A stretch of 64,000 nucleotides of DNA from positions 23,859 to 87,858 of the forward strand of contig CADAPG010000001.1 in assembly GCA_902789675.1 (NCBI GenBank), read 5' to 3'. Source of the stretch: an uncultured Eubacteriales bacterium. Lineage in GTDB: Bacteria; Bacillota; Clostridia; Christensenellales; CAG-138. The position numbers and the translations under genes are program-made. Of the stretch, positions 3,664 to 41,701 are shown one piece after another. The notes under the pieces are model-generated. The model was given only the letters and a program-made list of their open reading frames with translations, was not told where the DNA came from and made no database searches. How positions within the stretch are numbered: position 1 is the first letter of the stretch; each line of letters begins with the position of its first letter.

Positions 3664-4590
3664 ATGAAGAAAGAGCCTTCCAACACGCCGGATCCCGCCA
3701 AAGTCGACAGCATCCTGATCAGCGACGGGATCACAAAGATATATAAGGAAACGACGGCAAACAATCATATTTCCATTGCAATTCCTCGCGGAAAGATCGT
3801 CGGATTCGTAGGAGAGAACGGAAGCGGCAAAACGACGTTTCTGCGAATCATAACCGGTCTGATTTATCCGAATTCCGGCACGTTCCGGTTCAATACGCCG
3901 GACGGAAAATGTCGGATCGGCGCCATTGTGGAATCGCCCGCATACCACCCGGGCATGTCCGCAAAGGACAATCTGCGTTTTCAGGCACGGCTGTGCGGTG
4001 CGGATGAGAAGGGGATCGACGAGATTTTGAAAATGGTCGGTCTTGCAGACATCGGAAAGAAAGCCGCGAAGCATTTCTCGCTGGGCATGCGTCAGCGCCT
4101 CGGGATCGCGATTGCGCTGCTTTCCGATCCGGAGCTGCTTGTTCTCGACGAACCGACAAACGGACTCGATCCGCAGGGAATCATCGAACTGCGCGAGTTT
4201 CTGAAATCACTTTGCGAAAAGCGTCGGATGACCTTGCTTATCTCCTCGCATATCCTCAGCGAACTGTCGCTTCTGGCGGAGCATTATCTGTTCATTCACA
4301 AGGGCGTCATCTTGAAATCGGTCTCTGCGGACGAACTGTTTGCGCATTCCGATAAACGTTTGATCTTCAAATGCAGCGGCGATCCATCCGCATTCCTGAA
4401 GGATGCGGTATCCAACGGCTGGGCGGACGAAACAGAGATCAGGGACGACTGCTGTATTCTCCACGGACCGAAATACTACCCCGCGATTCTGAAAGCGCTT
4501 TCCGATCTGGACGTGACGGCGCTCGAAACGAAGGAGGAAACGTTGGAGACGCGCTATTTGTCTCTGATGGAGAGGGGGGGACAGCAATGA
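3664..4590 (+). CDS. ABC transporter ATP-binding protein
   Basis: Walker A GENGSGKTT, signature LSLGMRQR, Walker B LLVLDEP. The stop overlaps the start of the downstream permease (ATGA). Confidence 0.9.
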   Translation: MKKEPSNTPDPAKVDSILISDGITKIYKETTANNHISIAIPRGKIVGFVGENGSGKTTFLRIITGLIYPNSGTFRFNTPDGKCRIGAIVESPAYHPGMSAKDNLRFQARLCGADEKGIDEILKMVGLADIGKKAAKHFSLGMRQRLGIAIALLSDPELLVLDEPTNGLDPQGIIELREFLKSLCEKRRMTLLISSHILSELSLLAEHYLFIHKGVILKSVSADELFAHSDKRLIFKCSGDPSAFLKDAVSNGWADETEIRDDCCILHGPKYYPAILKALSDLDVTALETKEETLETRYLSLMERGGQQ

Positions 4591-5405
4591 AAAGAGTTCT
4601 GTCTGCGGATTTCTTCGACCTGCGCAAATCCAGAACGGTTTATCTGTTGCCGCTGTTTGCCGTGCTGCTCGGCGTTCTGATGCCGATGATGTATTACGGT
4701 ATCTACGTGCTGTTCAAATACATCGGAAGCACTGACACGCTGAAGGATAATGCCTCGTTTCAATCGCTGACCGGCATGCTGGACATTTTGAATGCACGTA
4801 CGGTTTTCTACGGCTCGCTGCCGCTGTCGCAGGGGTTCGGACTGATGATGACGGCGATGGCCGGATTTCGCGCAGCGCGGCCGTTCGGAACGGGGACTTA
4901 TCGGAATAAGATCATTGCGGGAATCCCGCGTCCCGCAATCTATCTTTCACAGTCTCTGATCTGCCTGCTGCTTTCCATAGTCGGTGCGGTGCTGTATACG
5001 TTGTCCGCGGCGCTCACCAGCCGATGGACCTTCGGCGCACTGGATCTGTCCGGAAAGGAGATCCTGAGCATAGCGGTGTTTTCCTTCGGAATCTATCTTG
5101 TATATACGGCAATTCCGGTGTTCAGCGCGTTTCTTACCCGCAGCGTACCGCTGACGCTGGTCATCTCCATGGTGCTGCCGATCCTGATGCAGACAGTGAT
5201 CCAACTTGTCAGTCCCATGATGATCTCCGCACCGGACGCGATCCTGTATATCCTTGCGATGTTCCCGTCGTTCCAGGGTATTTATATGACAAGCTCGGAC
5301 CCCGCGACCGCGATTTTGCTCATAGCGCTTGCCGCGGATATCGTATGGGCTGCACTGCTGACGGTTATCGGCATTCTTCGATTCAAAAAAGCCGACGTGA
5401 AATAA
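4587..5405 (+). CDS. ABC-2 type transporter permease
   Basis: ATG 4587 overlaps the ATPase stop; the ORF-track 4371 start lies inside the ATPase gene. Multi-pass hydrophobic protein (MKRVLSADFFDLRKSRTVYLLPLFAVLLGVLM...). Confidence 0.75.
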   Translation: MKRVLSADFFDLRKSRTVYLLPLFAVLLGVLMPMMYYGIYVLFKYIGSTDTLKDNASFQSLTGMLDILNARTVFYGSLPLSQGFGLMMTAMAGFRAARPFGTGTYRNKIIAGIPRPAIYLSQSLICLLLSIVGAVLYTLSAALTSRWTFGALDLSGKEILSIAVFSFGIYLVYTAIPVFSAFLTRSVPLTLVISMVLPILMQTVIQLVSPMMISAPDAILYILAMFPSFQGIYMTSSDPATAILLIALAADIVWAALLTVIGILRFKKADVK

Positions 5406-7856: not shown

Positions 7857-7880
7857 TGGCGGAGACGGTGGGATTCGAAC
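7857..7880. repeat. attL core: 24-bp direct repeat TGGCGGAGACGGTGGGATTCGAAC (orphan 3' end of tRNA-Ser)
   Basis: Identical to 41678-41701. Identity ends on both sides (7856 A vs 41677 T; 7881 T vs 41702 C). Confidence 0.85.
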
Positions 7881-8019: not shown

Positions 8020-9132
8020 TTAACTTGCATTTTTGGACACGGTTTTGGACACGGTCGGCTTCTCGTCCTCATAGAACGCCTTCATGCGTTCGATATCCTC
8101 GTTTACATCCTGCGCGGCAAGATGCGTATAGATATCGTGCACGACTGCGGGCGTCGACCATCCGCCGACCTGCATAGTTGTTTTCTCTGTCCATTTCAGA
8201 TGGTAGGCAAGGGACGCAAACGAATGCCGCAGGCAATGCAAGGTGACGTCCGGCAGGCCGACTGCTGCGCAGATCCTTTTCAGATGCCGGTTGATCGTCT
8301 TTTCGCTGACATCGACGGGCAGGCGATCCAGAAGGTCACGCAGCCGCGGGATCATAACCGGAACGTCGCGGTGCGACAGATCTGTTTTATTCTGCTCCTT
8401 GCTGACAAGCCCGTTCTCTCCACGCACGACGGCGCCGCGCACGCGGATCATGGACCCGTCGCATTGTGTCAGCGCAAGGATCTCGGACATACGCAGCGAG
8501 TGCAGCGCGAGGAGGTACACAATTTCGCATTCGTCGCCTCGGATGGCGGGGAGCAGCTTCTGTATCTGCTCGTAATCAAGAAACGCGCGCTCGGATCTGG
8601 AGGACTTCGGAAGATTTACAACGGGCGGCGTCATCTTTGCGTATTGCATCGCGCCGGTGACGAGACGCCATGCGTTGATGACCGTCTTCGGTCGTACGCA
8701 TTCCGTTTCTTTGCTGATCATCACTTGCCACGGGATCTTGCTGACGGACTGATCCAGATACGCCTTGAAGCGCGTTTTGCGCATGGATTTATAGGACCGA
8801 ACCGTCGCAGGGGACAAAACGGCTTCGTTCTCATTGATAAACCGATCGATTATCTGTCCGAGCGTGTCCTTCGGGGCTTTGTTTGCCTGCTCGATCATGC
8901 CGGCTTTAATGGCACGGGCGCGGATATAGTAAGCCGCTTCGGTGTCTTCGGTGATCCATACGCGGTTGCCGTCGACCATGACACGCCCGCGATATTTCCC
9001 GGACTTCGTCAATGCGGGCGGCGCAACAGATACTTCGTCTTTCGGCTTCCGCTGGCGCCGTATGCGCTCCCCGCAGAAACGGCAAAAGACGGAGTCGTTT
9101 TCGATCTCTTTTTTACAATGCTTGCAAATCAT
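8020..9132 (-). CDS. int: Tyrosine-type phage integrase with N-terminal zinc-ribbon
   Basis: Catalytic pattern SLRMSEI (Arg), HCLRHSFA (HxxR), HDIYTHL (Tyr). N-terminus CKHC...CRFC. Adjacent to attL. Confidence 0.9.
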   Translation of the reverse strand: MICKHCKKEIENDSVFCRFCGERIRRQRKPKDEVSVAPPALTKSGKYRGRVMVDGNRVWITEDTEAAYYIRARAIKAGMIEQANKAPKDTLGQIIDRFINENEAVLSPATVRSYKSMRKTRFKAYLDQSVSKIPWQVMISKETECVRPKTVINAWRLVTGAMQYAKMTPPVVNLPKSSRSERAFLDYEQIQKLLPAIRGDECEIVYLLALHSLRMSEILALTQCDGSMIRVRGAVVRGENGLVSKEQNKTDLSHRDVPVMIPRLRDLLDRLPVDVSEKTINRHLKRICAAVGLPDVTLHCLRHSFASLAYHLKWTEKTTMQVGGWSTPAVVHDIYTHLAAQDVNEDIERMKAFYEDEKPTVSKTVSKNAS

Positions 9133-10222: not shown

Positions 10223-10555
10223 TCACAGGGCATTCTTGTCTTCTTTTTTGTCTTTGTTTTCTGCAATAAGGAACTGAATATTGCGAATAATATTTGCTTT
10301 TTCAGGATCAGATAGTTTTCTGTATAGAGAAAGCAAATACATCTCACTATCGTCAAAAGGTGAAAACTGACTATTAACAAGATAATCCACAGAAACATGG
10401 AGATGGGCGGCAATCTCACAGATTTTTGAAACAGAAGCAGAAGAATCTGAAAGCTTGCTGATGTATCCTTTGCCAAATCCGCAATCCTTTTCAAGTTGAT
10501 TTATTGATATGCCGCGTTCTTTACAAATGGACTTAATACGCTCTTTTACTGTCAT
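10223..10555 (-). CDS. CI-like XRE-family phage repressor
   Basis: HTH pattern ISINQLEKDCGFGKGYISKL. Divergent from a Cro-like gene across a 211-bp operator region. Confidence 0.85.
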   Translation of the reverse strand: MTVKERIKSICKERGISINQLEKDCGFGKGYISKLSDSSASVSKICEIAAHLHVSVDYLVNSQFSPFDDSEMYLLSLYRKLSDPEKANIIRNIQFLIAENKDKKEDKNAL

Positions 10556-10576: not shown

Positions 10577-10748
10577 TTCTGAAAAAATCGCAAAAACTAT
10601 ATTGACAAACTGAATATATCGCGTATAATATAAGTGTGTTCTGAAAATATCGCGCTTTCAATTGACATAAAAATATAGTTTTGTCCGACAAGCAAATTAT
10701 AGTGCTAAATATGCAGCATGTCAATAAAAAAGCGTGATATTTTCAGAA
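10577..10748. promoter_or_regulatory. Phage genetic-switch region: four operator copies (consensus TTCTGAAAATATCGCG) plus two consensus sigma-70-type promoters facing each other
   Basis: O1 10577-10592, O2 10608-10623, O3 10639-10654 (direct, 31-bp spacing), O4 10733-10748 (inverted). Plus strand: TTGACA 10602-10607, 16 nt, TATAAT 10624-10629. Minus strand: TTGACA (reverse complement of 10719-10724), 17 nt, TATAAT (reverse complement of 10696-10701). Confidence 0.6.
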
Positions 10749-10766
10749 CGAACCGCAGGAGGAGAT

Positions 10767-10988
10767 ATGCAGATTTACGAAAAGATTAAATTAATTGCAA
10801 AAAACAAAAAGATCACGATTGATGCAATTGAAAAGGAAGCGAATCTTGGACGAGGTAGCTTATCGAAATGGAATACGGTCAGTCCCTCAGTTGGAAATCT
10901 TTTGAAAGTGGCAAAAATACTTGGCTGTAGTCTTGATGATTTGATCCAAGACGAAGAAGCAGATAATCAAAGCATAATACCAGCTTAA
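10767..10988 (+). CDS. Cro-like XRE-family HTH protein
   Basis: AGGAGGAG RBS then ATG 10767; the ORF-track start 10734 is upstream of the RBS. HTH pattern ITIDAIEKEANLGRGSLSKW. Confidence 0.8.
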   Translation: MQIYEKIKLIAKNKKITIDAIEKEANLGRGSLSKWNTVSPSVGNLLKVAKILGCSLDDLIQDEEADNQSIIPA

Positions 10989-12832: not shown

Positions 12833-12996
12833 GTTGCGCAGACAAGGCGCTTGCGGTAATTGAGCTTATAGGAGCGGGAATCATTTCAATTCTGATAATG
12901 GTGGCGCTCGGATCGATCATCATGATACCCGGGAGGCTGTCAGACATTGCGGACGAATTAAGAAAAGCGAATAAGGGGAAGGAGAAAAAGCAGTGA
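12829..12996 (+). CDS. Small membrane protein (55 aa)
   Basis: ATGA overlap with the upstream stop. One TM helix (VIELIGAGIISILIMVALGSIIMI) and a basic tail. Confidence 0.45.
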   Translation: MSCADKALAVIELIGAGIISILIMVALGSIIMIPGRLSDIADELRKANKGKEKKQ

Positions 12997-14717
12997 GAGA
13001 CCGCGGGGAAGACGTACAATCCCAGGAGATCTTCGTAGACAACTTCGCGGGCGGCGGTGGGGCAAGCACAGGGATTGAGCTTGCTATCGGAAGAAGCGTT
13101 GATATAGCGATTAACCACGATCCTGCAGCGATCGCTATGCACAAGGTCAATCATCCGAACACAAAGCACTATACCGAGGACGTCTGGGCGGTGGATCCGG
13201 TGGACGCCTGTGCCGGGCGGAGCGTGGCGCTTGCGTGGTTTTCGCCTGATTGCAAGCATTTCAGCCGTGCGAAAGGCGGCAAGCCGGTAGATAAGAATAT
13301 CCGAGGTCTTGCATGGGTTGCGATCCGATGGGCGTACCTCGTTAGACCGCGCGTGATTATGATGGAGAATGTTCCGGAAATCGTTACATGGGGGCCGCTT
13401 GATAAGCACAACAAACCGATCCCGGAACGCGCCGGAGAGACGTTCAACGCCTTTGTAGGAGCGCTGACGGTTGGAATATGGGACAAACACCCTGCAATCA
13501 AGGAAATGTGTGATGCGCTGCAAATAGACCGAGAATCGTCTATAGCAAAGGATATTATCGCAAAAGGTCTCGGTTATCAGGTGGAGTTTCACAAAATGCG
13601 CTCTTGCGATTACGGAGCACCGACGTCACGGGAACGGTTTTATATGATTGCGCGCTGTGACGGTGCGCCGATCCGGTGGCCGGAGCCTACGCATGCGCCG
13701 AAGGGCTCGTTTGAGGTTCTTTCCGGAGAAAAGCAGCCGTACCGCACGGCGGCGGAGTGCATCGACTGGTCTATTCCGTGTCAGAGCATTTTCGAGCGTG
13801 AAAAGCCGCTTGCGGAAAACACTCTGCGCCGGATTGCCCGCGGTATCAAAAAATTTGTGATCGACAATCCGAACCCGTTTATTGTGACGGTCAACCACAA
13901 AGGCGACGGCTTCCGAGGTCAAGACATCGCGGAACCGCTCGGAACTGTTACAGCAAAGAACGGATACGGCGTCGTGGTTCCGACGATCATGTGCAACAAT
14001 GCAAACAACGTCGGAAAGCCCGCAGATTCGCCGCTGCCGACCGTAACGACCGGAAATAGGAATTTCCTTGTAGCGCCCTCGTTGATTCAGTACCATTCTG
14101 AACAACAGGAAAACGAGGTCCGAGGGCAAGAACTGACAGAGCCGATCCAGACGCTTGACACGCAAAACAGATATGCGTTATCAGTCGCGGCAATCATGAA
14201 GAACTACGCGGGCGGCTACTCCGGTGCTGGCAGCTCGGTCGAAGATCCTTTGCATACGGTTACAGCGACCGACCACAACGCCCTTTTGACGGCGCATATC
14301 TTAACGTTACGCAACAACATGGACGGACAGGAGCTTGACGAGCCGCTGTCAACGGTCACGGCGGGCGGCTTGCACCACGCAGAGGTCGAAGCGTTCTTGA
14401 TAAAGTATTTTTCAACCGGATCACCGAAGCTGGTGGACGAACCGCTTGACACCATCACAACAAAAGACCGCTTTGCGGTCGTGACGATCCACGGCGAAGA
14501 ATACGTTATCACGGACATTCGTATGCGAATGCTGCAACCGAAGGAACTGTTCAAGGCGCAGGGGTTTCCGGATAATTACATCATCGACCACGACGCAGAC
14601 GGCAATCCGTACCCGAAGAAGGAACAAGTGGCGAAATGCGGCAATGCCGTCACGCCGCCGACCGCGGCGGCGCTCGTTCGGGCGAATCTGCCGGAGTATT
14701 GCAGGGAGGCAGTATGA
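12993..14717 (+). CDS. DNA (cytosine-5)-methyltransferase with greatly expanded, internally repeated target-recognition region
   Basis: AAGGAG RBS then GTG 12993. Motif I FAGGGGAS, IV SPDCKHFS, VI MENVPE, VIII TSRERF, IX QPKELFKAQGFP, X CGNAVTPP. About 285 aa lie between motifs VIII and IX and contain six (E/D/S)P(L/I)xT(V/L/I)(T/D) repeats. Confidence 0.9.
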   Translation: MRDRGEDVQSQEIFVDNFAGGGGASTGIELAIGRSVDIAINHDPAAIAMHKVNHPNTKHYTEDVWAVDPVDACAGRSVALAWFSPDCKHFSRAKGGKPVDKNIRGLAWVAIRWAYLVRPRVIMMENVPEIVTWGPLDKHNKPIPERAGETFNAFVGALTVGIWDKHPAIKEMCDALQIDRESSIAKDIIAKGLGYQVEFHKMRSCDYGAPTSRERFYMIARCDGAPIRWPEPTHAPKGSFEVLSGEKQPYRTAAECIDWSIPCQSIFEREKPLAENTLRRIARGIKKFVIDNPNPFIVTVNHKGDGFRGQDIAEPLGTVTAKNGYGVVVPTIMCNNANNVGKPADSPLPTVTTGNRNFLVAPSLIQYHSEQQENEVRGQELTEPIQTLDTQNRYALSVAAIMKNYAGGYSGAGSSVEDPLHTVTATDHNALLTAHILTLRNNMDGQELDEPLSTVTAGGLHHAEVEAFLIKYFSTGSPKLVDEPLDTITTKDRFAVVTIHGEEYVITDIRMRMLQPKELFKAQGFPDNYIIDHDADGNPYPKKEQVAKCGNAVTPPTAAALVRANLPEYCREAV

Positions 14718-15094: not shown

Positions 15095-15525
15095 CACCGA
15101 CATATTATTTGGATCCGGAATACGTCGAGCAGCAAGTCTTGCAGATCGAAGCGGAAAACAAGAAACTGCTTTTGATCGCTATCATTGTGATCGGCATCGC
15201 GGCGATCATATACATGGTCACAAAGTACATCCGATATAGAAACGCCCGTAAAAAAACAATCTCTGATCTTCGAAAGCGTATCAAGCGATTAGAGAAGGAG
15301 CGGGATCACCTGCAAACGAAGCGCTGCATCGACGCACAGGAAAAGTGCGACATCGAGAGCGACTGCGAGTGGAGGATTGCGGAAGCCGAGAAAAACGCTG
15401 CAGAACGCATCAGAGTAGAGCAGAAAAAAACGGCCGCCGCGGAGAGCAGAACGCAGCAATCGGAGGATCTGCGCAAGCAGATCGCACAGGCGGCGGATAA
15501 GATCATCGGGGAGGCGATCGCATGA
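15091..15525 (+). CDS. Membrane-anchored coiled-coil protein (144 aa)
   Basis: AAGGAGGG then TTG 15091, overlapping the upstream TGA. One TM helix (LLLIAIIVIGIAAIIYMV) followed by a charged helical region. Confidence 0.45.
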   Translation: MTPTYYLDPEYVEQQVLQIEAENKKLLLIAIIVIGIAAIIYMVTKYIRYRNARKKTISDLRKRIKRLEKERDHLQTKRCIDAQEKCDIESDCEWRIAEAEKNAAERIRVEQKKTAAAESRTQQSEDLRKQIAQAADKIIGEAIA

Positions 15526-16103
15526 AGCTAAAAAGCATCGGAAAGCTGTGTACGTACCGAAAAGAGGTAAACATTCTGCAGAAGATAAATGATACCGGTA
15601 CAATCAGGCGGTATATCGGTGACGGTCATGCGTTTTACGAGGTAGGCGAGCTTGGCGACGTTGTTGATCTGGATATCATGCAGACGATCTTCGACGTTAA
15701 GAAAGAGGATCGCGCAAGCTGGTCATATAGAAACATGACCGAAAGCGTCTATGCGCCTTTAGAGGACGAATGCGCCGGCGAACAGATCTTGAGGGCAATC
15801 GATCTGCGTATGAAATGGCACGGACTTGAACTGATGCCGCTTTCGTACGCGGACGGGATCTGCTTTATCGACACGGACTACCTTGCGCCGATGCGCGACG
15901 AGATCAAAGAGGGCGGCGTCGGATTTTATAAGCGGGCGGGAGAGTCGATCGTGACCGTCAAGAACGGCATGTGTAAGGCGATTGCGTGCATTATGCTTTC
16001 AAAAGTTCCGGAAGCTGCGGTAGACGCTCTATATGAGATCTATCGTGCGATATCGCTGTACCGTGTGGAACCGTCAGAGACGGATGGCTTATCAGACCAG
16101 TGA
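15522..16103 (+). CDS. Hypothetical early phage protein (193 aa)
   Basis: ATGA overlap with the upstream gene. Coding-like composition; no motif recognised. Confidence 0.55.
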   Translation: MKLKSIGKLCTYRKEVNILQKINDTGTIRRYIGDGHAFYEVGELGDVVDLDIMQTIFDVKKEDRASWSYRNMTESVYAPLEDECAGEQILRAIDLRMKWHGLELMPLSYADGICFIDTDYLAPMRDEIKEGGVGFYKRAGESIVTVKNGMCKAIACIMLSKVPEAAVDALYEIYRAISLYRVEPSETDGLSDQ

Positions 16104-16107
16104 TTCT

Positions 16108-16296
16108 ATGCGTGCGATCATTAAGTATCCTGGATCAAAGTGGAGAATCGCCAAGTGGATCATCGATCATTTTCCACCGCATCATAGCTATCTCGAACCA
16201 TTCTTTGGATCCGGGGCCGTGCTTTTCACGAAAAAAAGAAGCAACATTGAAACCATAAACGATTTGGACGAGAATGTAGAAAAGGAGGAAACAGGA
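16108..16296 (+). pseudogene. N-terminal ~60-aa remnant of a Dam-like (D12 class) N6-adenine DNA methyltransferase, reading in frame into the next gene
   Basis: MRAIIKYPGSKWRIAKWIIDHFPPHHSYLEPFFGSGAVLFTKKRSNIETINDLD matches the family N-terminus and the SAM motif (FxGxG). The DPPY catalytic motif and the remaining ~200 aa are absent from every frame downstream. Confidence 0.65.
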
Positions 16297-17160
16297 ATGT
16301 CTTATCGGGTAAAGCAGCGCATTTTCTCGGGCGTTGTATGCGAACAAGAGATATTTTCTGTTTCATCTTCTCGTCAAAAGAAAACGCCGAAAAGCTATTC
16401 TATGAAGATCCGCTTTGAAAGCGACGAAGCATATGAACGATACAAAGACGGCGTTCGCCGCAGAAACTTTATCCGGATCATAAATGCAAATTATGATCCG
16501 GAATCGCTGTATATAACGCTTACATTCGACAAGGAAAACGAAGTACATACATTTGAAGAAGCGAGGATGATCAGGGATCTGTACTATCGCCGCTTGAAAT
16601 ATATGTACCCGGATTCTGTACCGTGCTTTGTCATGGGCCGAGGGAAAACTACAAACAGAATACACCTGCACATGATCTCAAAAGGGATCCCGAAAGAGTA
16701 CATCATACAACAATGGACATACGGCAGCATTGTCGACGTTCAGACGCTGCGCGAGCACAATTACTATAACAACATAGATTGCGGTGCTGATTATACGGCA
16801 CTTGCGAATTACTTATATGACCATTGGACGCCAGAGCAGGGCGGACACCATTATAAAATTAGTAAAAATGCCAAAAAGCCGGAAAAGGAAAAGCCGACGC
16901 AGCCGACAAGAGAATACTCGATTGATCATCCGCCGAGACCGCCGAAAGGGTATGTGTACACCGAGGGATATCAAACGGAGTACGGCTATATGCGGTTCAA
17001 ATATGTAAAGATACCGGAACATGACAAGAAGCAGGGTTCGAGAGGAAACCTCTTAAATACACCTTGTATATATGAAAGGTTTTGTGACGATGACGGAGGT
17101 ACCGGAGCGAGGAGATCGATGAAAGATCCTCCGCCGCGCCGCAGATCATCATTACAGTAG
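16297..17160 (+). CDS. HUH-superfamily rolling-circle replication initiator (Rep)-like protein
   Basis: AAAGGAGGAA RBS then ATG 16297. Motif I LYITLTF, motif II RIHLHMI (HUH), W-x-x-G-x-I-V-D-V, motif III candidate Tyr in ALANYLYDH. Lower GC than the flanks. Confidence 0.65.
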   Translation: MSYRVKQRIFSGVVCEQEIFSVSSSRQKKTPKSYSMKIRFESDEAYERYKDGVRRRNFIRIINANYDPESLYITLTFDKENEVHTFEEARMIRDLYYRRLKYMYPDSVPCFVMGRGKTTNRIHLHMISKGIPKEYIIQQWTYGSIVDVQTLREHNYYNNIDCGADYTALANYLYDHWTPEQGGHHYKISKNAKKPEKEKPTQPTREYSIDHPPRPPKGYVYTEGYQTEYGYMRFKYVKIPEHDKKQGSRGNLLNTPCIYERFCDDDGGTGARRSMKDPPPRRRSSLQ

Positions 17161-17169
17161 CCGTAGAGC

Positions 17170-17321
17170 GGTGGACCCCTGTGAGCCGTGTCGGGCAAGT
17201 CACACGGAAACAGGACATGAACAAAGAAACATGACTTGTCCACACCGGTCACAGAGTCCACCAAGAAAATATGTGTCGGGCAGTGTCGGGCAACCCGCAG
17301 GGGTGTCCACACTGTCCACAC
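17170..17321. repeat. Iteron-like repeat array downstream of rep
   Basis: GTGTCGGGCA at 17188-17197, 17273-17282 and 17283-17292 (the last two in tandem). TGTCCACAC at 17237-17245, 17304-17312 and 17313-17321 (the last two in tandem). GGTGGAC 17170-17176 pairs with the inverted GTCCACC 17256-17262. Confidence 0.7.
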
Positions 17322-17351
17322 ACCGATGTAGACGATGAAAGGAGAACGACA

Positions 17352-17570
17352 ATGCTTGAAACAAACTGCCACGATTGCAACTACGCAACGAAGATCAATG
17401 CGGACACTTACCGGTGCAGACGCAAACGGTATGATATTGTACGGAAAACGTGCTTTGTGCAGAGAAAGGAATTGATGGAGAAAGATCGAGAAGCAGATGA
17501 AGTATACAGGAAACTGCATGAGATCAATGAACGAAAGGACGGTACTGACGGTGTACGATCTGATCTATAA
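17352..17570 (+). CDS. Small cysteine-rich (zinc-ribbon-like) protein (72 aa)
   Basis: GAAAGGAGAA RBS then ATG 17352; the ORF-track start 17271 lies inside the iteron array. Cysteine pattern CHDC...C...C. Confidence 0.55.
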   Translation: MLETNCHDCNYATKINADTYRCRRKRYDIVRKTCFVQRKELMEKDREADEVYRKLHEINERKDGTDGVRSDL

Positions 17571-18021
17571 ACACGAAGCGCTCCACGCTGTACTGCACAA
17601 CGAGGGGCAGGCCGCGATCGCGGCGATCGAGAACATCAAGCCGGTTAATCTGATGGATTAACCGGTTGATAAGCTGCTGCTATTTGCGCAAGCATGCAAG
17701 CAACAGGGAGTAAGACCGGAAGATCTGAGGAACGTCGTATCAGATATCACATGGGGCGCGAAGGTAGCATATGCCGCGTATGATAAAGCAATCAAAGAAA
17801 CGCTTTTTCACCAAACTGAAAATGGGGTTAGTGCTGTGTTTACGGTAGATCTTCCGCCGCCGATCAACACGGAAAGGATACCGTTCCAGTTTGACAGCGA
17901 ATTTGAAGTGAAAGTGCCGAAGATACGGACGTCGAGCATTGAGGACATTGATATGCTTGAAGAACTCCGCGAGATCGAAAAACGAGTCAACAGGAGCGAA
18001 AGCCATGACCGCACCGTGTAA
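17497..18021 (+). pseudogene. Single reading frame interrupted by one in-frame TAA (17659-17661): either two small genes or a disrupted/read-through gene
   Basis: Frame 1 is open at 17476-17658 (ATGs at 17497, 17518, 17527) and again at 17662-18021. The second segment looks protein-like for 58 codons with no ATG/GTG/TTG until GTG 17836. Confidence 0.35.
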
Positions 18022-18561: not shown

Positions 18562-18912
18562 ATGGGAAAGGAAGCGACGCAAAAACACGGCGGATTCACG
18601 AGCGAGAATGCAAAGGAAATGCAGCTGAGGTCCGCGGAAAAGAAGAAGCAGAACAAGGCCGAGCGAATGGTCATGCGCGAAGTCGCGTTAAAACGTGTGA
18701 AGATGAAAGACCGGGCGGCTATCTGTGATGCTCTGATCGAGAAGGCAAAAAAAGGAGATGAAAAGGCAACGACGTTGCTTCTGCAGATCATCGGCGAGCT
18801 TCCGGACGCAAAGCAGAGTCTTGACGTCAACATGAACATTATATCGGATGCGGATCGAAAGCTGCTCGATAACGCAGCAAAACGATATGAAAACGCAAGA
18901 GATCCTTCGTAA
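18562..18912 (+). CDS. Putative terminase small subunit
   Basis: 116-aa basic/helical protein directly upstream of, and overlapping, the large terminase. There is no clear RBS at 18562; ATG 18619 is an alternative start. Confidence 0.45.
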   Translation: MGKEATQKHGGFTSENAKEMQLRSAEKKKQNKAERMVMREVALKRVKMKDRAAICDALIEKAKKGDEKATTLLLQIIGELPDAKQSLDVNMNIISDADRKLLDNAAKRYENARDPS

Positions 18913-20356
18913 AGCATGGGAAGATGAAGTCTCGTATTGCAAGGATCATCCGGAATACTTCGTAGATCACTACGGTCATATCGAAGACAAGGACACGCTG
19001 GAGTTCATCCCGTTTCGGATGTGGAAGGAGCAGCGGGAAGCGCTGAAATCCATTCATGCAAACCGGTTGAATTGCGTTATGAAAGCGCGTCAGATCGGTC
19101 TGACATGGCTCGTCCTGCACTATGCAGCGTACGTCATGTTGACGATGCAAGGTAGCACGGTCTTAGCGCTTTCACAGAGAGAGGACGATGCGAAGGTTCT
19201 GATAGTCAGAATTTGCACCATTTTTGAGCAAATGCCCGAGCTTGTGAGGCGGGATGAATGGTACGGCGCGCATCTGGAATCAACAACGGAAAGTGCGACG
19301 CTGACATTTCCAAACGGGCGGATAAGTGAGATCAAAGCGTTCCCTTCGTCACCTAATGCAGGAAGATCGATCACAGCGAACCTCGTCATACTCGACGAGT
19401 GGGCATTTCAGCAATGGGCGGAAGATATCTGGGCGGCGGCATTTCCGACGATCAACAGACCGACGGGCGGAAAGGTGATAGGGCTTTCTACCAACAAACG
19501 CGGATCGCTCTTTGAACAGATTTGGACCAAAGAGGGAAACGACTTCAATAAACTGTTCATCCCGTGGAGCGCGGATCCAAGAAGAGATAAGACGTGGTAC
19601 GAGAAAACAGAACGCGCTATCGGTAAAGAAAAGATGTGGTCCGAATACCCGGCGACGCCGGAAGAGGCATTGACGGTGCCGGGTGGGGCCATGTTCCCGG
19701 AGTTCAAGGACAGTACACACCTGACGGATTACATGCCGGACGGGTATGTATCGCGGTATATCTCGCTGGACTATGGCCTCGATGCGCTTGCGGCTCTATG
19801 GTACGCGGTAGATACGCGAGGAAGGGTAACGGTATACCGGGAACTGTATGTAAGCGGTCTGATCGTTTCGGCGGCAGCACAAGCCATTTTGAAAGCGAAC
19901 AATGGCGAGTATTATGACGCGATCTATGCGCCTCCGGATCTCTGGAACAGGAACCGAGATACGGGGCGCTGCTCCGCGGAGATATTCGCGGAAGCCGGAC
20001 TGCTGCTGACGCAGACAAGCAATGATAGAGAACAGGGATGGCTGGACGTCAAGGAATGGATTAAGCCAACCGAAGAAACGAACGAACAGACAGGAGAGAA
20101 GAAGATGGTCGCGCGCTTGCAGGTGCTACGCGGCGCGGCACCGGAGCTCATGCGGTGCATGAAAGCGATCCAGAAGGACAAAAAGAACCCGAACGACGCG
20201 GCAAAGGATCCGCACGAGCTGACGCATCTCCCGGACAGTTTACGGGCGTTCTGTGCGGGCAGACCGCAGGTGCCGATGATCCCGACTGTGCGGGATCCGT
20301 ACGATCCGAAAACGTACAACGATCAAATCAGCGATTTTATGGCATGGGGGACGTAA
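18887..20356 (+). CDS. terL: Terminase large subunit
   Basis: Start at ATG 18887 (MKTQEILRKAWEDE). Walker A-like KARQIGLTW, Walker B LVILDEW. 489 aa, positioned before the portal. Confidence 0.85.
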   Translation: MKTQEILRKAWEDEVSYCKDHPEYFVDHYGHIEDKDTLEFIPFRMWKEQREALKSIHANRLNCVMKARQIGLTWLVLHYAAYVMLTMQGSTVLALSQREDDAKVLIVRICTIFEQMPELVRRDEWYGAHLESTTESATLTFPNGRISEIKAFPSSPNAGRSITANLVILDEWAFQQWAEDIWAAAFPTINRPTGGKVIGLSTNKRGSLFEQIWTKEGNDFNKLFIPWSADPRRDKTWYEKTERAIGKEKMWSEYPATPEEALTVPGGAMFPEFKDSTHLTDYMPDGYVSRYISLDYGLDALAALWYAVDTRGRVTVYRELYVSGLIVSAAAQAILKANNGEYYDAIYAPPDLWNRNRDTGRCSAEIFAEAGLLLTQTSNDREQGWLDVKEWIKPTEETNEQTGEKKMVARLQVLRGAAPELMRCMKAIQKDKKNPNDAAKDPHELTHLPDSLRAFCAGRPQVPMIPTVRDPYDPKTYNDQISDFMAWGT

Positions 20357-27664: not shown

Positions 27665-30600
27665 ATGGCAACGATTGATGACATCCTTAAAAAGTATCAG
27701 AAGGCTCTGACGAAGAAACAGATCGAAGACCTGATTCAGAAGAGCGAGCAGTACAAGTTGCTCAACGCCGGTAACAGAGCGAACGCGCAGACGCAGCTTG
27801 CGAAGCAGTACCGTCAGACGCGTCGCGGGCTTCAGAACGTAGGCTTGGCAGGGCGCGAAGGGAAACTTATCAGCGGACGCGAAATCAGCGTAAAAGACGC
27901 GTACAGAAACGCATACGGCACGTACAATCAACAGCTTCAGCAGGGCGAGAACGCGATGATCGAACAGGCAGCAGCGAAGAAAGCGGCTGCCAATGCAAGA
28001 GCGCGTCAGCAGCAAGCGGAACAGCAGCAGAAGGCGATCGAATACGAACAGGAGCGGCTCAATCAGGAGCAGATTACAGATCCGCGTCTTGAGCGTGAAA
28101 AGCCTACGCGAGAAGATAAGGAATATTCAGCTCTTGTGAATTACAATCCGTTCAATCACAGCGCGGATGAGAACGTGAACTATTATTTGAAGATCGCAGA
28201 GCAGAACGGCATGAAGGGCGTTGAGGCGAACCGCTATGCTGTGTCGATGGCAGCAGAAGTGGCAAACAGAAAAGGTGCCGCTGCCGAAGCGATCCAGCCG
28301 CATGGTCTGAAACCGAATCAGGAGCAGATTCAGAAGAATCTCCCTTCCCTTCGTTTCGCACAAGACTATGGAGTTAATCTGATGAAGCTGAAGCAGGAAG
28401 ATCCTGCGATGGCACAGACCATCGAAGACGATGTCAAATACTGGTATGACTTCATCGATGAAAAGTCTGAGTTTTGGAGCAACGCGATCCGCAATAAGAC
28501 AAAGGATTATCATTCTGCGCTACAGATGCAAGCGAATGCGTATGCGGCACTTGCGAAACTGTCGCTTGCGGCGAAGGCTCCTGCCGAGCAGCGGCAATAC
28601 TATCTGATGTCCGACGCTGAATTCGACACGGCGTATGATGCTGCGGAGAGAGCGTATACGCGCGCCGAGCAGGAATATCAGATTGCAAAGAAGGACAGCT
28701 CCAGCACGATGGATGATGTCATTTCGGAACCGAAAGCTGCGCTTGAAAAGGCAATGCAAATGAAGAATCTGATGGATCAGATCAAGGCGAACAGGGCAAG
28801 CAATTCGACGGTAAATCTGCTTGCGTATCAGATGCAGATTCCCGAATCCGCAAAGACAAAGGACAAAGAGTACGCATCGACAAGAGAATATGTGGACGAG
28901 AATCAAGCCGCCGGGAAGATCACATTAAAAACAAAGGATTGGACGCTTAAAATCAATCCTTGGACAGAGAACCCGTCGCAAAACTGGGCTGCTGTTCGTG
29001 ACATCGGATGGTCTGCTGACGATTTCGCAAGGACACACGATGTCAAAGGCTCAAGGTATTCTGCGTTAATTAACGAGTGGTCACTTATTTGTGGGAGAAT
29101 CGCTTCGCTGTTTGGAGCAAATCAGTATTTTGCTACGGATAAAGATTTCGTTGGCGCGTCCTTGGATTACATTCAGGCATTGTTCGGCGCGAACCGAGCC
29201 GATACGGATGTCAATTACAAGTGGTTCCGTGACCAATGTCTGATGGCGTTTCGCGGAAACTACGACGATACCGGCTCCGATGCGCAGAAGGAACAGATGG
29301 ATGCCATGCTGACGCTTGCGAACCTCATGACGGACGAGGAGCGCGCGCGTTTCAACGCATTGCTTGATACGATGGGAGCAAGGGCAGCTGACGAGTATTT
29401 TGACCTTCTGTACAAAACCGTGCTTCCCGAAAGATTCACGTCGTATGTGTCGGATTACAATGCTGAATACATGGAAGATCTGCCCGGTATTGCAAAACCT
29501 GCGTTGAGCGTCACGAGTGTACTTCCGTCGCTTACGCAGGGCATTCCCGGTATTGCTCACGCGTACAGCACGAATCAGCAAGATCCTGCCGCGGCGCGTG
29601 TTTCTGCGATGCGATACAACCAAGCACAGAACATTCGGAATGCGCGTATGCAGAAATTCGGCAAATTCGGTCAGTTTGCATACGGCACGACGATGAGTAT
29701 GTGGGACTCATACTTTGTCGCAGCTATTACAGGCGGTTTGGGAAAAGCGTTTGCGGCAGCCGGTGTACCTACGGCAGTAAATATCGGCGGCAAGACCGTA
29801 AACATTGCAGAAAAGGCGGCGAGTGTTATTGGAGGTTCCCTACTTGGTGCGTCCGCGTATAACTCCACGTATCAGGAAGGTCTTGAGAGAGGCTTGACCC
29901 CCGAAAAGGCGCGGATGACGGCATTGGGTTCCGGCATCAACGAGATGCTGTTTGAATCGCTGTCGTTGGATATGCTCGTTGGTCATTTCCAAAAGGGCGG
30001 TATGCTCAAGGCATCGAAGAAGGCATTTGTGAACTGGATCGTCAACACCTTGGTGCAGGGTGGCGTTGAAGGTTCCGAAGAGGTCTTCACCGATATCGGC
30101 AATAATCTGTGGGACAAAATGGTCAACGGAATCTATTCCGAAGAGCTGACGAAGATCCGCGAGTATGTATCGCAGGGCATGACGCTTGAGGAAGCAAAGC
30201 GAAAAGTCAGCGGTGAATTCGCAGCGCAGTTGGGCATGAGCTTTGGCGGCGGCTTTGCATCCGGCGGCGTGATGGGCGGCGGTTCTACGTTCATGGGCAT
30301 GGTGCAGAATCGCGGAAACGAGAAGGTCGGCAAGTCGCTTGACAGCGGTCTGCGGTCGAAGATCGACGGCTTCCAATTCAAGGACAAACAGATGCAAGAG
30401 CTTCAAAAGCAGAGCAAAAAGACGAACCAAGACTACGGCGTTTTGCTTCAGGGATATCTTGCTGAAAAGTACGGACAGTTTGAAGGCAACGTGCAGCAAG
30501 CGGTCAAGGACGGCACGATCACGAATGAGGACGCGGCTCTGCTGGATAAGTGGCAGAAGGGCGAGGTCACCGCAGACGAGATGCAGACCGTCAACGAAAC

Positions 30601-33600
30601 GCTTGCGAAGCTGGACATCAAGCCGCTGCTGGAGATTGCACAAGCGCAGGAATCCATTCGGTTTAACCAGCAAGTAGGCGTGAAGAATGCCGAGAACCTG
30701 CGTGCGTGGGAGACGAAGCATAACGAAGCGCAGAAACAGCATGACGAGGAAGTCGCAAAGATCGAAGCGGACGATTCTTTGACCGATGCGCAGAAGGAGC
30801 AGAAGAAAGCCGAAGCGTATCAGAAGATGACCGAGGCGCAGAGCAGAGCCGGGGACGAACTGTCAGCAAAGGTCGGCAGGAAGATCGACATCAAGGTTGA
30901 GAAAGACGGCACGACGGTCAGGACGAAGAAGGGGTCCGGCAAGGTTACCTTTGATTTCAGTACCTACAATAACGGTAAGGCCGAGAATCACAACACGGTC
31001 GAAACGATGACCGAGCGCGAACGGGCAGCACTGCGGATCGCGCAGGTGGTCGCTGCGCTGAACGGTACGAACATCAAGGTCGAAGCGCAGTTTACGTCGC
31101 GAACGCTGAAGGACGGAACGGTCGAGGATCTCAAAGACAAGAACGGCTATTATGATGAGGACACGGACACGATCCACGTCAACCTGAACGGTACGAACAG
31201 CGTACTATGGACGATTTCGCACGAACTGACGCACCGTCTTGCGACGATGAACAAGAAGGGCTACGCAGAGCTGCATGACGCGATTAAGACCGAGCTGACG
31301 AAGGAGAACCTGACGTATTCCGAGGTGCAAACGCTGGAGCATTCGTATCAAATCGACAAGCTGCAGACGTATCTGAATAAGGGTATGAACCTTTGGGATG
31401 CGCTCGTTGCGTATGAAACGGACAGAGGGTATAAGGGCGCCGCGGCAGAGGAAGAAGTGATCGCCCGGTGCTGCGAACAATTCCTTGCAAAGACGACGTT
31501 CATAAACAGCTTTGCGAATAAGCACTTCCGCACCGCAAGGTCTGTTTCCGCATTCCTGACGCGCATGAACGCGGACATGCAGCAGCTTTTCTCGGACGTC
31601 AATATGCGCAGCACGCGGGCGGCGACCACGCGGAACGAGCTGGGATATTTTGAAACGTGGAATACCGACGTATCCCCGGAACAGGACATTCTGAATCAGG
31701 TCGACACGCTGGACGATATAGCCCGGAAGTGGGAGAACGCGGTCAAGATGGTCGATCAGAAGCGCAAGGCGAAGGAAAGCGCGAAAGCGGAGAGCGTGAA
31801 AGCGTCGACTATGGATAAGTCCTGGGTTTCCAGCTACCCGTCAACAAGGATCGATTATAAGGAAAAGTCGAGTTATTCACCGTACATGCAGCATGTCATT
31901 ACGGAATACATGGGCGCTGTTGATGATCGGCTTGTGCAGTTTGCAAAAAAAGTTGTAAATGGACAGTATGTAAAACCTGTTGAGTTAAAGAATGTATCAA
32001 ACGAACTTGGTGCAGATATTGAGAAACTTTTGGGATGGAATCCTGCTGGATATAAAACAATCATTGAATCAAGGATAGGAGAACACATAAGGAAAAGACA
32101 CGGTCTTGGCGGCTATGTTAGTGGTAGACAATCTGATATGTCTATGGCTGATTATAATGATTTTGCACGCATGCAGTTTATCATTGATAATTACGACACT
32201 ATTCAAGTTGGAAAAGCGACAACTGCATACAGAGAAATGCAACCGGGTTCTGATAACGTTCAGTTAAAAGCTGAAACGATTGTACTCGGTAAGCGCATTA
32301 ACAGTATGTACTATGTTGCAGAAGCTATTCCGAATACGTCTGATAAGACGGTAGCGATTATGTCTGCGTATATACGCGACGTTGATGTCACGAAAAAAGG
32401 AGCTGTGCCGGTCCGCGATACAAAATACGTCCCGCGGTCCACGTCCAAGACCGAAGCGGCTCTAACTCCTAAGCCTATTATACACGATAGGGAAGCAGAA
32501 TACAATAGCAAATTACGGAAAAACAGCACGCAGGACAAGGACTTCCACCTGACGCAGCGCGCCGGAGAGCAGCGCGTGTTTGAGATGCGCGGCACGACAG
32601 CGAACGTGTACGGCAGCAGCGTCGAACTGGAGGGCGGCACGCTTCTGAACCGTGTGCGAATGATGCAGAACCTTGCCGAGATGTACGGCTCCGTCACCGT
32701 GACCGCGACGAGCGAAAAGGAAGCGCAGGCGTTTGAGAAAGCCGGCGCGCAGCGCGAGGCCGACACGTTCGGAAATACCAAATACGGCACGTGGGCGTTT
32801 GAACACCAGGAGGACCAGTACCGGAAGGATACGGAGTACGACGCGAAGCAGAAGCGGAACTTTGCGAACGCGGTCATGAAAGAGGTCGGAACGTACCGGA
32901 ACTTCTCTAAGGACGATATGCGAATCATCCGCGCAAAGCTGGAAAAGGCGTTTGCTGTGCTGCACAACGCATGGCACGGCGACGGCGATCAGCTCGTCGC
33001 GTGGGAGTACGCGGACAGACTATTTGATCAGATCCTGAATCGCTACACCGAAATGACCGAAGCGGACGCCGAGATGCGCGAAGCGATCCTTGCCGAGATG
33101 CCGCGTAAGACCGATGCGAAGGGCCGCGTGTATCGTGAGATCGAGGTTACCGCTGCGCAGATGGCTGAGATCCGGACCGCGTATGAAAGCGTAGCAGAGT
33201 ATAACCGTGCGCTTTCCAAAGCGCTGGGTACGCGTGTGGTCGTCAAGGAAACGGAAAACGCGCAGACGCTGGAGGACGTCTTCGCAAGCAATCCATACCT
33301 TGACGCACAGACGAACGAGGGCGACATGCCGATGGTGCTGCTGGACCGCGCACAGGAAACGGTCGGCAAGCGCACAAACCCGTATAAGGCAGAGAGCGCA
33401 GAGCGGGCGGCACTGAAGGAAGCCATGTTTGAAAAGGCGTTGGGCATTGTCGGGATCGAGAAATCCACGACGCAGAAAGTCCGTGAAGCGGTCAGGGAGG
33501 CACGGGCGGAAGAACGCGCAAAGGCCAAGGAAGAAGCGGAAAAGAAAAAGCTGGCAGAACAGATGGAACGTGGAAGATTCCGCGCAAAGGTTCGTCGAGA

Positions 33601-41677: not shown

Positions 41678-41701
41678 TGGCGGAGACGGTGGGATTCGAA
41701 C
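41678..41701. repeat. attR core (24 bp), forming the 3' end of the intact tRNA-Ser
   Basis: Identical to 7857-7880. Confidence 0.85.

Follow-up and report, generated by a model that had tools for sequence, protein, structure and literature searches.

Organization of the early region

The window (the whole stretch of 64,000 nucleotides that was analysed) carries a prophage of ~33.8 kb that uses a tRNA-Ser gene as its integration site in a gut Clostridia bacterium, with clean 24-bp att repeats in this gene. As listed in Table 1, the end of the early region holds a gene encoding a 193-aa protein (p193), the first 57 codons of a dam gene, an HUH rolling-circle initiator-like gene (rep), a conserved element within the 3' tail of rep and two hairpins beyond it; a terminase gene follows ~1.5 kb downstream of the rep/origin region. 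A previous reading of the letters by themselves (the sequence-only reading) had described one 375-aa open reading frame running without a stop codon from a methylase part into a Rep part, with a strong ribosome-binding site and ATG 16297 starting a different protein at the change. The open frame and the absence of a stop between the Dam stump and rep were both confirmed, and AAAGGAGGAA was found 6 nt before this ATG. Promoter and terminator scans of the window and of the corresponding spacer of the related prophage L013 gave chance-level results, and NCBIfam held no model matching Rep or p193. Several small early ORFs of the prophage carry no annotation and could hide replication functions.

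Table 1. Features of the dam-rep locus, with positions counted from the first letter of the window.
Feature	Position	Strand	Description
p193, left flank of the methylase slot	15522..16103	+	193 aa; phrog_24518; unknown function
Mechanical 375-aa ORF	16033..17160	+	stump frame read through into rep; its codons 1-25 overlap with the p193 end
Stump of Dam (D12-class N6-adenine methylase), codons 1-57	16108..16277	+	PF02086 match; 94.7% aa identity to residues 1-57 of Dam of L013 (intact, 268 aa)
Deletion junction	16271..16280	.	blastn block ends against L096, L013, L001, L002 and L004, with base-level comparison
Rep Shine-Dalgarno AAAGGAGGAA	16281..16290	+	6 nt before ATG 16297
rep, HUH rolling-circle initiator-like, long form, low-confidence C-terminal tail	16297..17160	+	287 aa; phrog_3584, AlphaFold2, Foldseek
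Rep motif I LYITLTF	16507..16527	+	Y72, T74 and T76 invariant
Rep motif II (HUH) RIHLHMI	16657..16677	+	R121, H123 and H125 invariant
Rep motif III YTALANYLYDH	16792..16824	+	Y172 and H176 invariant; Y166 at least 90% conserved; on a predicted helix
Conserved cis element ACCTTGTATATATGAAAGGTTTTGTGACGAT (family consensus GCCTTGTAAATGTGTAAnGTTTnnnnACGAA), candidate nick site	17061..17091	+	inside the 3' tail of rep
Imperfect hairpin 1, conserved	17170..17262	+	~27 pairs, variable loop, inverted GTGTCGGGCA / TGTCCACAC repeats; compensatory changes at 5 pairs
Hairpin 2, conserved, candidate Rep binding region	17272..17322	+	same repeat type as hairpin 1

The methylase stump

The region 16108-16290, which had been read as the N-terminus of a D12-class methyltransferase, matched positions 1-53 of the 253 in Pfam PF02086 (MethyltransfD12) above the cut-off, with 45 bits and an E-value of 1.3e-11, and also positions 1-56 of TIGR00571 (dam) and phrog_56. 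As in other D12-class phage orphan N6-adenine methyltransferases (PF02086, TIGR00571), the profile match starts at position 1 and the AdoMet-binding motif I (FxGxG) is kept, here as EPFFGSGAV. Unlike them, the stump has no catalytic DPPY (motif IV) and no DNA-recognition region, both of which were deleted: the likeness to full-length Dam proteins stops at residue 57 (base 16278), and 57 of 268 codons (~21%) are left, against the ~250-280 aa of a full-length D12 domain. The earlier statement that neither DPPY nor a Dam C-terminus appears downstream held for the whole 64 kb, in which tblastn with the intact Dam of L013 matched residues 1-57 only, whereas ADPPY is present in the intact Dam of the relatives L096 and L013. 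What is left is the AdoMet-binding loop alone, and DNA methylation by the stump is impossible; judged by its sequence, the stump is a pseudogene remnant of Dam and not a functional member of the family. A word-index search with the stump returned only short proteins (up to 111 aa), which we treated as retrieval bias and from which no frequency was drawn.

The Rep protein

The rep gene is intact: its coding sequence is complete, and it retains a ribosome-binding site and start codon of its own as well as the cis elements downstream. All Rep homologues have their start where ATG 16297 lies and share a conserved beta-hairpin at the N-terminus, and the Shine-Dalgarno sequence is kept in relatives in which the sequence upstream is entirely different. 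The protein matched phrog_3584 ('replication initiation protein') with an E-value of 3.9e-37, residues 2-250 aligning with profile positions 3-260 of 265. The Pfam family PF23343 (REP_ORF2-G2P) was matched weakly, at 22 bits and under the cut-off of 27.8, and 15 of 21 relatives matched at E <= 0.01. All four of the rolling-circle motifs picked out by the sequence-only reading are present, and within them no change is seen across 21 homologues at T74, T76, H123, H125, W140, G143 and Y172. The HUH signature is H123-L-H125, with both histidines invariant (21 sequences); motif I is of the uuTuT type, carrying the invariant T74 and T76, and the motif III tyrosine Y172, the candidate catalytic residue, lies on a predicted helix (167-174).

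The fold gave a concordant assignment. A confident AlphaFold2 model of Rep (pLDDT 79, pTM 0.78) was compared by Foldseek with BFVD, in which the matches were siphovirus 'ORF2/G2P' and 'gene A' Reps and Microviridae initiators (E 3e-15 to 1e-4, TM up to 0.71), and with the PDB, in which the matches were weak (E >= 0.027) and 37 of the 50 listed were HUH Rep nuclease domains. The assignment to Rep proposed from the letters was thus upheld by both profile (phrog_3584) and fold. A sequence search of the PDB with the Rep profile yielded nothing significant, an IMG/VR scan with the single Rep protein confirmed no relative, and our literature searches found no study, experimental or other, of the PHROG 3584-type Rep family. 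Three GenBank 'Bacteriophage sp.' records of 4.6-5.2 kb that contain a Rep homologue were considered as small autonomous replicons and set aside, being unverified scaffolds from which no inference is made.

As had been noted, Rep is the only recognizable replication protein of the prophage, and no other initiator was detected in it. Some relatives with the same Rep family (L011) also carry DnaB, so Rep is not necessarily the sole initiator across the family.

A candidate origin at the 3' end of rep

Synonymous-site conservation spikes at rep codons 251-270. The core of the conserved element (~30 nt) is unique within the window, and in 67 of 89 loci the element lies near the rep stop codon, on the rep strand only. 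In the long-form Rep subfamily (282-289 aa) the reading frame runs through the element, and the C-terminal tail of these proteins comes from reading through it; in short-form Reps the element is located after the stop codon and is non-coding. Downstream, compensatory changes were seen in 11 of 50 pairs of the hairpins, which are subfamily-specific, and the hairpin region had a DNA fold z-score of −4.6. No Rfam family was found in 15900-17700. A 177-aa ORF on the minus strand (16986-17519), which is a gene call in one assembly, was rejected, as indels in relatives break its frame and the region shows hairpin covariation. From these sequence features, the element at 17061-17091 and the hairpins downstream of it are likely to be the replication origin.

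Loss of 926 bp relative to related prophages

The sequence-only reading had proposed comparing related prophages for an intact Dam at this locus, and such a gene was found in L096 and L013. Positions 1882-3048 of L096 align with 15104-16270 of the window at 96.9% identity and positions 3982-5027 with 16278-17323 at 96.4% identity. Between the two blocks L096 carries 926 bp that are missing from the window, and this interval contains a tRNA-Met and a Dam gene whose 268-aa product is intact and has ADPPY. The same arrangement (p193, intact 268-aa Dam, tRNA-Met, spacer, rep) is present in L013, and this order is the undamaged state. In the nearest rep modules (L001, L002, L013 and L096), a tRNA and spacer lie directly upstream of the same ribosome-binding site. 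The Dam C-terminus, the tRNA-Met and the spacer were not found anywhere in the window. As L096 is collinear with the window on either side of the scar at 96-97% identity, and the window is shorter by exactly 926 bp, rep is the resident gene and what was lost is the accessory Dam/tRNA segment.

The gene order around the scar recurs in the relatives. Homologues of p193 occupy the same position in L002, L004, L013 and L096, and rep follows directly after the p193/methylase slot in the same four; in every relative inspected, rep stands at the end of the early region, before the terminase genes. Between p193 and rep, the slot is occupied by methylases of D12 or N6_N4 type that are non-homologous, interchangeable and subject to repeated decay; on individual inspection, independent decay of Dam was seen in L009, L011, P0351 and P0360.

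At base level, homology on the Dam side stops at 16270-16278 and homology to the rep module begins at 16278-16283, with no appreciable microhomology, and 19 nt now separate Dam codon 57 from the rep start codon. The stump allele differs from the Dam of L096 at 13% of nucleotides, mostly synonymously, although the adjoining flanks are >99% identical, so the true parent Dam allele is not among these relatives. Through an exact-protein look-up we located the identical junction in assemblies of two different samples that were made with different assemblers. Given this identity in two independent metagenome assemblies, and a prophage bounded by 24-bp att repeats, the junction is not an assembly artefact. 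The exact junction 26-mer gave no match in scans of JGI metagenome contigs and IMG/VR. When the excised circular form of the phage was sought in contig records, only lysogen-type flanks were returned; a scaffold of 33,907 bp (L094) fits a circular form and equally a prophage contig that runs from att to att.

A fall of GC at the junction, which had also been reported, is the one sequence-level statement of that reading that did not hold. GC drops instead where the stump begins, ~170 nt before the junction (p193 0.507, stump 0.435, rep 0.449), and since Dam and rep share the same lower GC, it does not mark the junction.

The fused product in protein collections

The exact 375-aa product has no record in the protein collection, while the 350-aa product that starts at ATG 16108 was called in two assemblies, one public assembly labelling it a 'MethyltransfD12' protein. 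A word-index search gave 3415 matches at E <= 0.001, of which the best 120 were all stand-alone Reps of 235-306 aa, and none of the best 150 matches of an exhaustive search of 1.84 billion representatives covered both the Dam and the Rep part. Three proteins (P0333, P0351 and P0360) that seemed to align beyond residue 57 of the fused query proved on inspection to be frameshifted or rearranged Dams and not Dam-Rep fusions. A conserved natural fusion, which the sequence-only reading had named as the observation that would speak against a replacement scar, was therefore not seen, no homologue among these matches covering both parts; on these sequence comparisons, Dam-Rep is not a conserved natural architecture. 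Literature searches found no study of such a Dam-Rep scar.

Discussion

A recombination event has taken place at this locus, and the reading that we consider quite probable is that a loss of 926 bp, by deletion or an equivalent illegitimate crossover, left a Dam stump in frame with an intact resident rolling-circle rep and its likely origin. The ancestral end of the early operon in this phage lineage runs from p193 through a dispensable methylase cassette (Dam here), tRNA-Met and a spacer to rep and the origin region. One illegitimate recombination event with little or no microhomology took out the tRNA-Met gene, the spacer and Dam from codon 58 to codon 268, and left codon 57 joined to rep, by chance in frame and without a stop. 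A two-parent crossover between co-infecting relatives and a simple intragenomic deletion are equally likely routes to this state. In either case the scar is ordinary phage gene decay. The sequence-only reading had concluded that a rep-containing segment replaced most of a Dam gene; its recombination scar that destroyed Dam stands, but its incoming segment of lower GC does not, rep being resident and 926 bp having been lost relative to L096.

After this event the normal 287-aa Rep is probably still translated. The 4 nt between the p193 stop and the Dam start codon (ATG 16108) are a distance favourable to translational coupling, through which the Dam start codon may still be active and yield some N-terminally extended 350-aa Rep as a by-product. 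Going by what is known of the family, HUH Rep would nick one strand at a specific site, for which we propose the CCTTGTA(T/A)ATA element at 17061-17091; under the origin model, cleavage would be expected within CCTTGTATATATG. The hairpin/iteron region at 17170-17322 would serve as the Rep binding site, Rep would become covalently attached through Tyr172 and recruit host helicase and polymerase, and rolling-circle (sigma) replication would deliver concatemers for the terminase.

The converse history, in which a foreign rep-containing module of lower GC was inserted and took the place of the 3' part of a Dam gene that was already there, is unlikely. The left boundary of the rep module at 16278-16283 is indeed a recurrent mosaic boundary, to the left of which L001, L002 and L004 differ, and the divergence of the stump from L096 implies at least one inter-phage exchange nearby. 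An insertion is, however, at odds with the constant place of rep at the end of the early region of every relative inspected (after the p193/methylase slot in L096, L013, L002 and L004), with the occurrence of Dam and rep together in L096 and L013, separated by tRNA and spacer, and with the match of both scar flanks to one relative at 96-97%. The GC of the stump, moreover, equals that of rep, the drop lying at the Dam start. The proposal that the Dam(1-57)-Rep chimera is itself a selected functional product, for instance a Rep isoform with altered regulation or localization, takes up the open frame, the coupling-type spacing of the Dam ATG 4 nt past the p193 stop, the 350-aa calls by gene finders in two assemblies and the presence of the allele in at least two samples. 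We regard it as highly improbable, as a random junction is in frame and free of stops by chance about one time in three (~30%), a stump that amounts to half a Rossmann fold is unlikely to fold alone, Rep homologues all begin at the position of ATG 16297 with the conserved N-terminal beta-hairpin, and neither the best 120 of 3415 word-index matches nor the best 150 matches from 1.84 billion representatives included a two-part homologue.

The role of rep can also be read differently, with the HUH protein and the downstream element serving genome-end formation or packaging (a site-specific nickase working with terminase) or late-gene control, and not replication. Whatever the type of terminase or portal, the gene and element are always placed where the early and late regions meet, 1.2-1.5 kb ahead of the terminase genes, DnaB is also present in some phages with this Rep, and two GenBank phage records start <100 nt upstream of a rep homologue. 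Against this, the relatives of Rep by sequence and fold are all replication initiators, no other initiator is detectable in the prophage, the record starts may be arbitrary, and one to four small genes lie between the element and the terminase small subunit; a role that excludes replication is very improbable. Also very improbable is the broader idea that the HUH protein and the element (GCCTTGTAAATGTGTAAnGTTT...ACGAA) form a module for site-specific nicking that sets the ends of the genome or primes packaging, instead of or beside replication initiation, in thousands of siphoviruses of Oscillospiraceae and other Clostridia. If true, the HNH-terminase partnership would have an HUH counterpart in this module, with long-form proteins that translate through their own target site.

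The scar itself carries little weight, being a textbook example of accessory gene loss from a mosaic phage genome, together with a warning for annotation, since an apparent fusion protein in an ORF track need not be a real architecture. Of wider use is a testable candidate origin for a very large Rep family from prophages of gut Clostridia. It is composed of a 30-nt core and a hairpin/iteron region and, if confirmed, would provide a minimal rep-ori cassette on which to build vectors for gut Firmicutes that are hard to manipulate.

Among known systems, the window Rep stands closest to the PHROG 3584 / PF23343 Reps of siphovirus prophages, with which it shares the full-length profile match, motif I, HUH and Tyr motif, and its predicted fold matches BFVD models bearing those names; it differs in scoring under the PF23343 gathering threshold and in belonging to a long-form subfamily. 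The gpA proteins of P2 and phiX174 (Phage_GPA, PF05840) are HUH initiators with the origin inside their own gene. The window Rep is likewise an HUH protein and the only initiator detected, the rep ORF and the candidate nick element overlap at the 3' end of the ORF, a rolling-circle output would suit concatemer packaging, and its Foldseek matches include 'Replication gene A protein' and Microviridae initiators. However, it did not match PF05840 at E <= 1, is much smaller than gpA (~510-760 aa) and lacks the paired spacing of the gpA YxxxY motif, Y166 and Y172 being six positions apart. With the Rep_1 plasmids pC194 and pUB110 it shares the arrangement of a small HUH Rep beside an origin in Firmicutes, but the replicon is a 34-kb tailed prophage and no small plasmid, the motif differs and PF01446 (Rep_1) was not matched. 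Rolling-circle origins are organized into a bind site and a nick site (PMC5714925), and the nick motif of Rep_1 plasmids is CTTGATA (PMC10378824), to which the core of the window family, CTTGTA(A/T)A, is similar but not identical.

Reading frame shared by a Dam stump and the rep gene

The 375-aa mechanical open reading frame at 16033-17160 is a composite of two parts. The first, the start of a D12-class adenine methylase, matched positions 1-53 of 253 in Pfam PF02086 (E 1.3e-11), positions 1-56 of TIGR00571 dam, and phrog_56; it keeps the AdoMet-binding motif EPFFGSGAV, and the Dam similarity ends after ...NDLDENV. The second, a 287-aa Rep, matched phrog_3584 ("replication initiation protein") along its full length (E 3.9e-37), so that the profiles bear out the sequence-only reading of a Dam N-terminus followed by a Rep gene with its own ribosome-binding site. 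That reading had also seen no DPPY motif or Dam C-terminus downstream, and a tblastn search of the entire 64 kb with an intact relative's Dam recovered residues 1-57 only. Because the catalytic motif is missing, the stump falls outside the functional Dam enzymes. A fall in GC had been placed at the stump/rep junction, but it sits at the start of the stump (0.507 in the upstream 193-aa gene, 0.435 in the stump and 0.449 in rep).

Stretches of 8.9 kb and 7.1 kb in two assemblies, from different samples and different assemblers, matched the window at 100% identity, also across the junction, and the same prophage was found at the same site in a third sample. Gene calls differed between the two assemblies: a 350-aa "MethyltransfD12" protein was predicted in one, a protein of 287 aa in the other. 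The scar is genuine, and the phage seems intact. Its tail region holds a single 3361-aa open reading frame (27665-37750) that takes up roughly 30% of the prophage genome; an open reading frame of this size is unusual in a siphovirus-type prophage of some 34 kb.

The fused protein was searched exhaustively with phmmer against 1.84 billion cluster representatives. Rep matches aligned from query residues 64-69 onward, beginning at residues 2-14 of the matched proteins; Dam matches were confined to query residues 1-57 or 1-58, and no homologue spanning Dam and Rep was present among the best 150. A word-index search with the 350-aa fused query returned 3415 matches, the best 120 of which were all 235-306 aa and covered at most 82% of the query, the Rep part alone. 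The protein matches P0333, P0351 and P0360, considered as longer fused proteins, were rejected as frameshifted or rearranged Dams. The Dam-Rep fusion is no natural architecture, and its description as a scar stands.

Features of the window and of relative loci and contigs (L numbers) carrying Rep or Dam homologues
Feature	Position	Strand	Remarks
24-bp direct repeat TGGCGGAGACGGTGGGATTCGAAC	7857-7880 and 41678-41701		bounds the ~33.8-kb prophage
Integrase	8020-9132	minus	N-terminal zinc ribbon
Repressor	10223-10555	minus	
Cro-like gene	10734-10988		
C5 cytosine methylase	12993-14717		574 aa; phrog_116
193-aa gene	15522-16103	plus	
Dam stump	16108-16277		57 codons; ATG 16108, 4 nt past the stop of the 193-aa gene
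rep ribosome-binding site	16281-16290		AAAGGAGGAA; ATG 16297 six bases further on
rep	16297-17160	plus	
Conserved element, ~30 nt	17061-17091	rep strand	3' end of rep; core CCTTGTATATATG at 17062-17074
Two hairpins	17170-17262 and 17272-17322		inverted GTGTCGGGCA / TGTCCACAC repeats
Terminase large subunit	18848-20356		
Endolysin	40221-41129		
tRNA-Ser(CGA)	41678-41771	minus	3' end is the right-hand repeat copy
tRNA (Met-CAT or Ser-GCT) and ~115-nt spacer upstream of rep	L001 169-361; L002 3907-4112; L013 3808-4000; L096 3792-4000		
N6_N4 methylase	L004 4356-4988		intact
N6_N4 methylase	L005 4327-4985		frameshift-split
Split Dam / REP_ORF2-G2P-like protein	L011 5001-5912 and 9133-9864		

Loss of DNA between Dam and rep

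Relatives were gathered by exact-protein look-ups and a scan of GTDB genomes, and an intact Dam at this locus was found in two of them. L096, a 35.8-kb metagenome scaffold, carries the C5 methylase, two small genes, the 193-aa gene, an intact 268-aa Dam (with ADPPY), tRNA-Met, a spacer and rep; L013, from a Clostridia metagenome-assembled genome, has the same gene order, and in the first 57 residues its Dam shares 94.7% identity with the stump. L096 1882-3048 aligned without gaps to window 15104-16270 at 96.9% identity and L096 3982-5027 to window 16278-17323 at 96.4%, and the window lacks the 926 bp between the two blocks. In the rep modules of L001 (94% DNA identity), L002 and L013, the same ribosome-binding site is directly preceded by a tRNA gene, for Met or Ser, and a spacer of ~115 nt; this spacer is conserved among the three, largely different in L096 and deleted in the window. 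The undamaged order in relatives, together with the collinear flanks of L096, therefore means that rep is the resident gene. The sequence-only reading had a rep segment arriving and replacing most of Dam; that direction finds no support here, and the remainder of the inference is supported. The lost DNA held the remainder of Dam (codons 58-268), the tRNA-Met gene and the spacer.

Dam codon 57 now lies 19 nt upstream of the rep ATG. A base-level comparison found no appreciable microhomology at the joint, and an in-frame, stop-free outcome is expected from about one in three random junctions. Between the stump and the L096 Dam (window 16108-16277, L096 2886-3056) the divergence is 13% (22 of 170 nt, with 17 synonymous changes), whereas identity exceeds 99% in the adjoining 500 nt of the 193-aa gene and in the initial 600 nt of rep; the window's Dam is therefore a different allele from that of L096, and was once functional. 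Together with further divergent patches against L096 (window 15404-15603, 16878-16977 and 17078-17177), this indicates patchy gene conversion or mosaicism. The event itself may equally have been an intragenomic deletion or an illegitimate crossover between two co-infecting relatives.

With this loss the phage should no longer make adenine methylase or tRNA-Met. Since the conserved upstream spacer is gone, rep is probably now transcribed only within the early operon; its translation signals, coding sequence and candidate origin are untouched by the deletion. If the Dam start is still active, it would give some 350-aa extended Rep, for which nothing suggests selection. The finding is an ordinary gene-decay scar, correctly observed. 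The C5 methylase, whose N- and C-terminal catalytic parts are separated by a long insert and which is also retained in L094, L095 and L096, is kept, and thus the phage still has one methylase despite the loss of Dam.

Decay of methylases upstream of rep

Of the 77 Rep loci whose upstream sequence was long enough, only those of the close subfamily, whose Reps are of the long form (282-289 aa), had a methylase directly upstream of rep. It is a D12 Dam in L013 and the window (stump only), an N6_N4 type unrelated to D12 Dam in L002, L003 and L004, and, in L005, a copy of that N6_N4 gene which a frameshift has split; L096, with a D12 Dam, was added after this count. The slot upstream of rep is a methylase cassette site, and the split in L005, which comes from a different sample than the intact L004 gene, is a second, independent methylase decay there. 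Dam decay was also found in unrelated phage contigs, as a 106-aa stump (L009), a split gene of 96 + 169 aa (L011), a 57-residue stump continuing into other sequence (P0351) and a mini-Dam with an internal deletion (P0360). Accessory genes of this kind are lost routinely.

The Rep protein

The rolling-circle motifs noticed in the sequence-only reading withstood the profile search, and in 21 homologues (50-98% identity) T74 and T76 (motif I), H123 and H125 (HUH) and Y172 were among the invariant residues, with Y166 at least 90% conserved. The match of Rep to Pfam PF23343 (REP_ORF2-G2P) was weak (22 bits, cut-off 27.8), and 15 of 21 relatives matched that model at E <= 0.01; Rep belongs to PHROG 3584 and, in a looser sense, to PF23343. 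The AlphaFold2 model (pLDDT 79, pTM 0.78) was confident outside residues 25-36 and the C-terminal tail (259-287). Foldseek against viral models retrieved siphovirus proteins named "Replication-associated protein ORF2/G2P" and "Replication gene A protein", together with Microviridae initiators (E 3e-15 to 1e-4). Matches to the PDB were weak (E >= 0.027), and 37 of the 50 listed were HUH Rep nuclease domains, including those of AAV, parvovirus NS1, circovirus, geminivirus, Vientovirus and SIRV1 ORF119. Rep resembles P2 gpA and phiX174 gpA in its predicted mode but is not a member of their group (no profile match, different tyrosine spacing), and the same holds for the pC194-type Reps (no profile match, different core motif). 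No second replication protein was recognisable in the prophage early region, in agreement with the view of Rep as the sole replication-type protein visible. The unrelated contig L011 encodes DnaB, ParA and ParB beside its split Dam, with a REP_ORF2-G2P-like protein ending the early region; the Rep family thus coexists with other replication modules in some phages.

A candidate origin at the 3' end of rep

Of the findings, only the candidate origin has some wider use. Across nine long-form rep genes, identical synonymous codons peaked at rep codons 251-270 (0.83-0.89 vs 0.57 overall), and the conserved element, a candidate origin nick site, lies at this end of the gene. Its core has no second exact copy in the window and a single one-mismatch copy at 33712. 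Of 89 Rep loci, 67 carry the longer element (consensus GCCTTGTAAATGTGTAAnGTTTnnnnACGAA), in 52 distinct versions, on the rep strand between -150 and +400 nt relative to the rep stop; inside that interval fell 68 of 94 plus-strand occurrences of the 8-mer core, against 4 of 33 on the minus strand. Beside short-form Reps (about 250 aa) the element is non-coding, commonly no more than about 25 nt past the stop (17-24 nt in loci listed individually), whereas in long-form Reps the reading frame runs through it and it is coding, which accounts for their synonymous constraint and disordered tail.

The two hairpins are built from a 9-10-bp repeat unit in six copies and both orientations, with a DNA fold z-score of -4.6 for the region. 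They are restricted to the long-form subfamily and L075 and are kept in eight distinct relatives, 11 of 50 pairs being preserved through two-sided changes; conservation of G-T pairs is limited to the plus strand, and the region had no Rfam match. A 177-aa antisense open reading frame (16986-17519, minus) called in one public assembly overlies the rep 3' end and the hairpin region, and was rejected as spurious on the relatives' indels and the hairpin covariation.

By analogy, core and hairpins would correspond to the nick site and bind site that make up rolling-circle origins (PMC5714925). Rep would bind the downstream hairpin repeats, nick the DNA at or near the conserved core and attach through Tyr172, and rolling-circle replication would then start with host helicase and polymerase. 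The core resembles CTTGATA, the nick motif of Rep_1 plasmids (PMC10378824), but is not identical to it.
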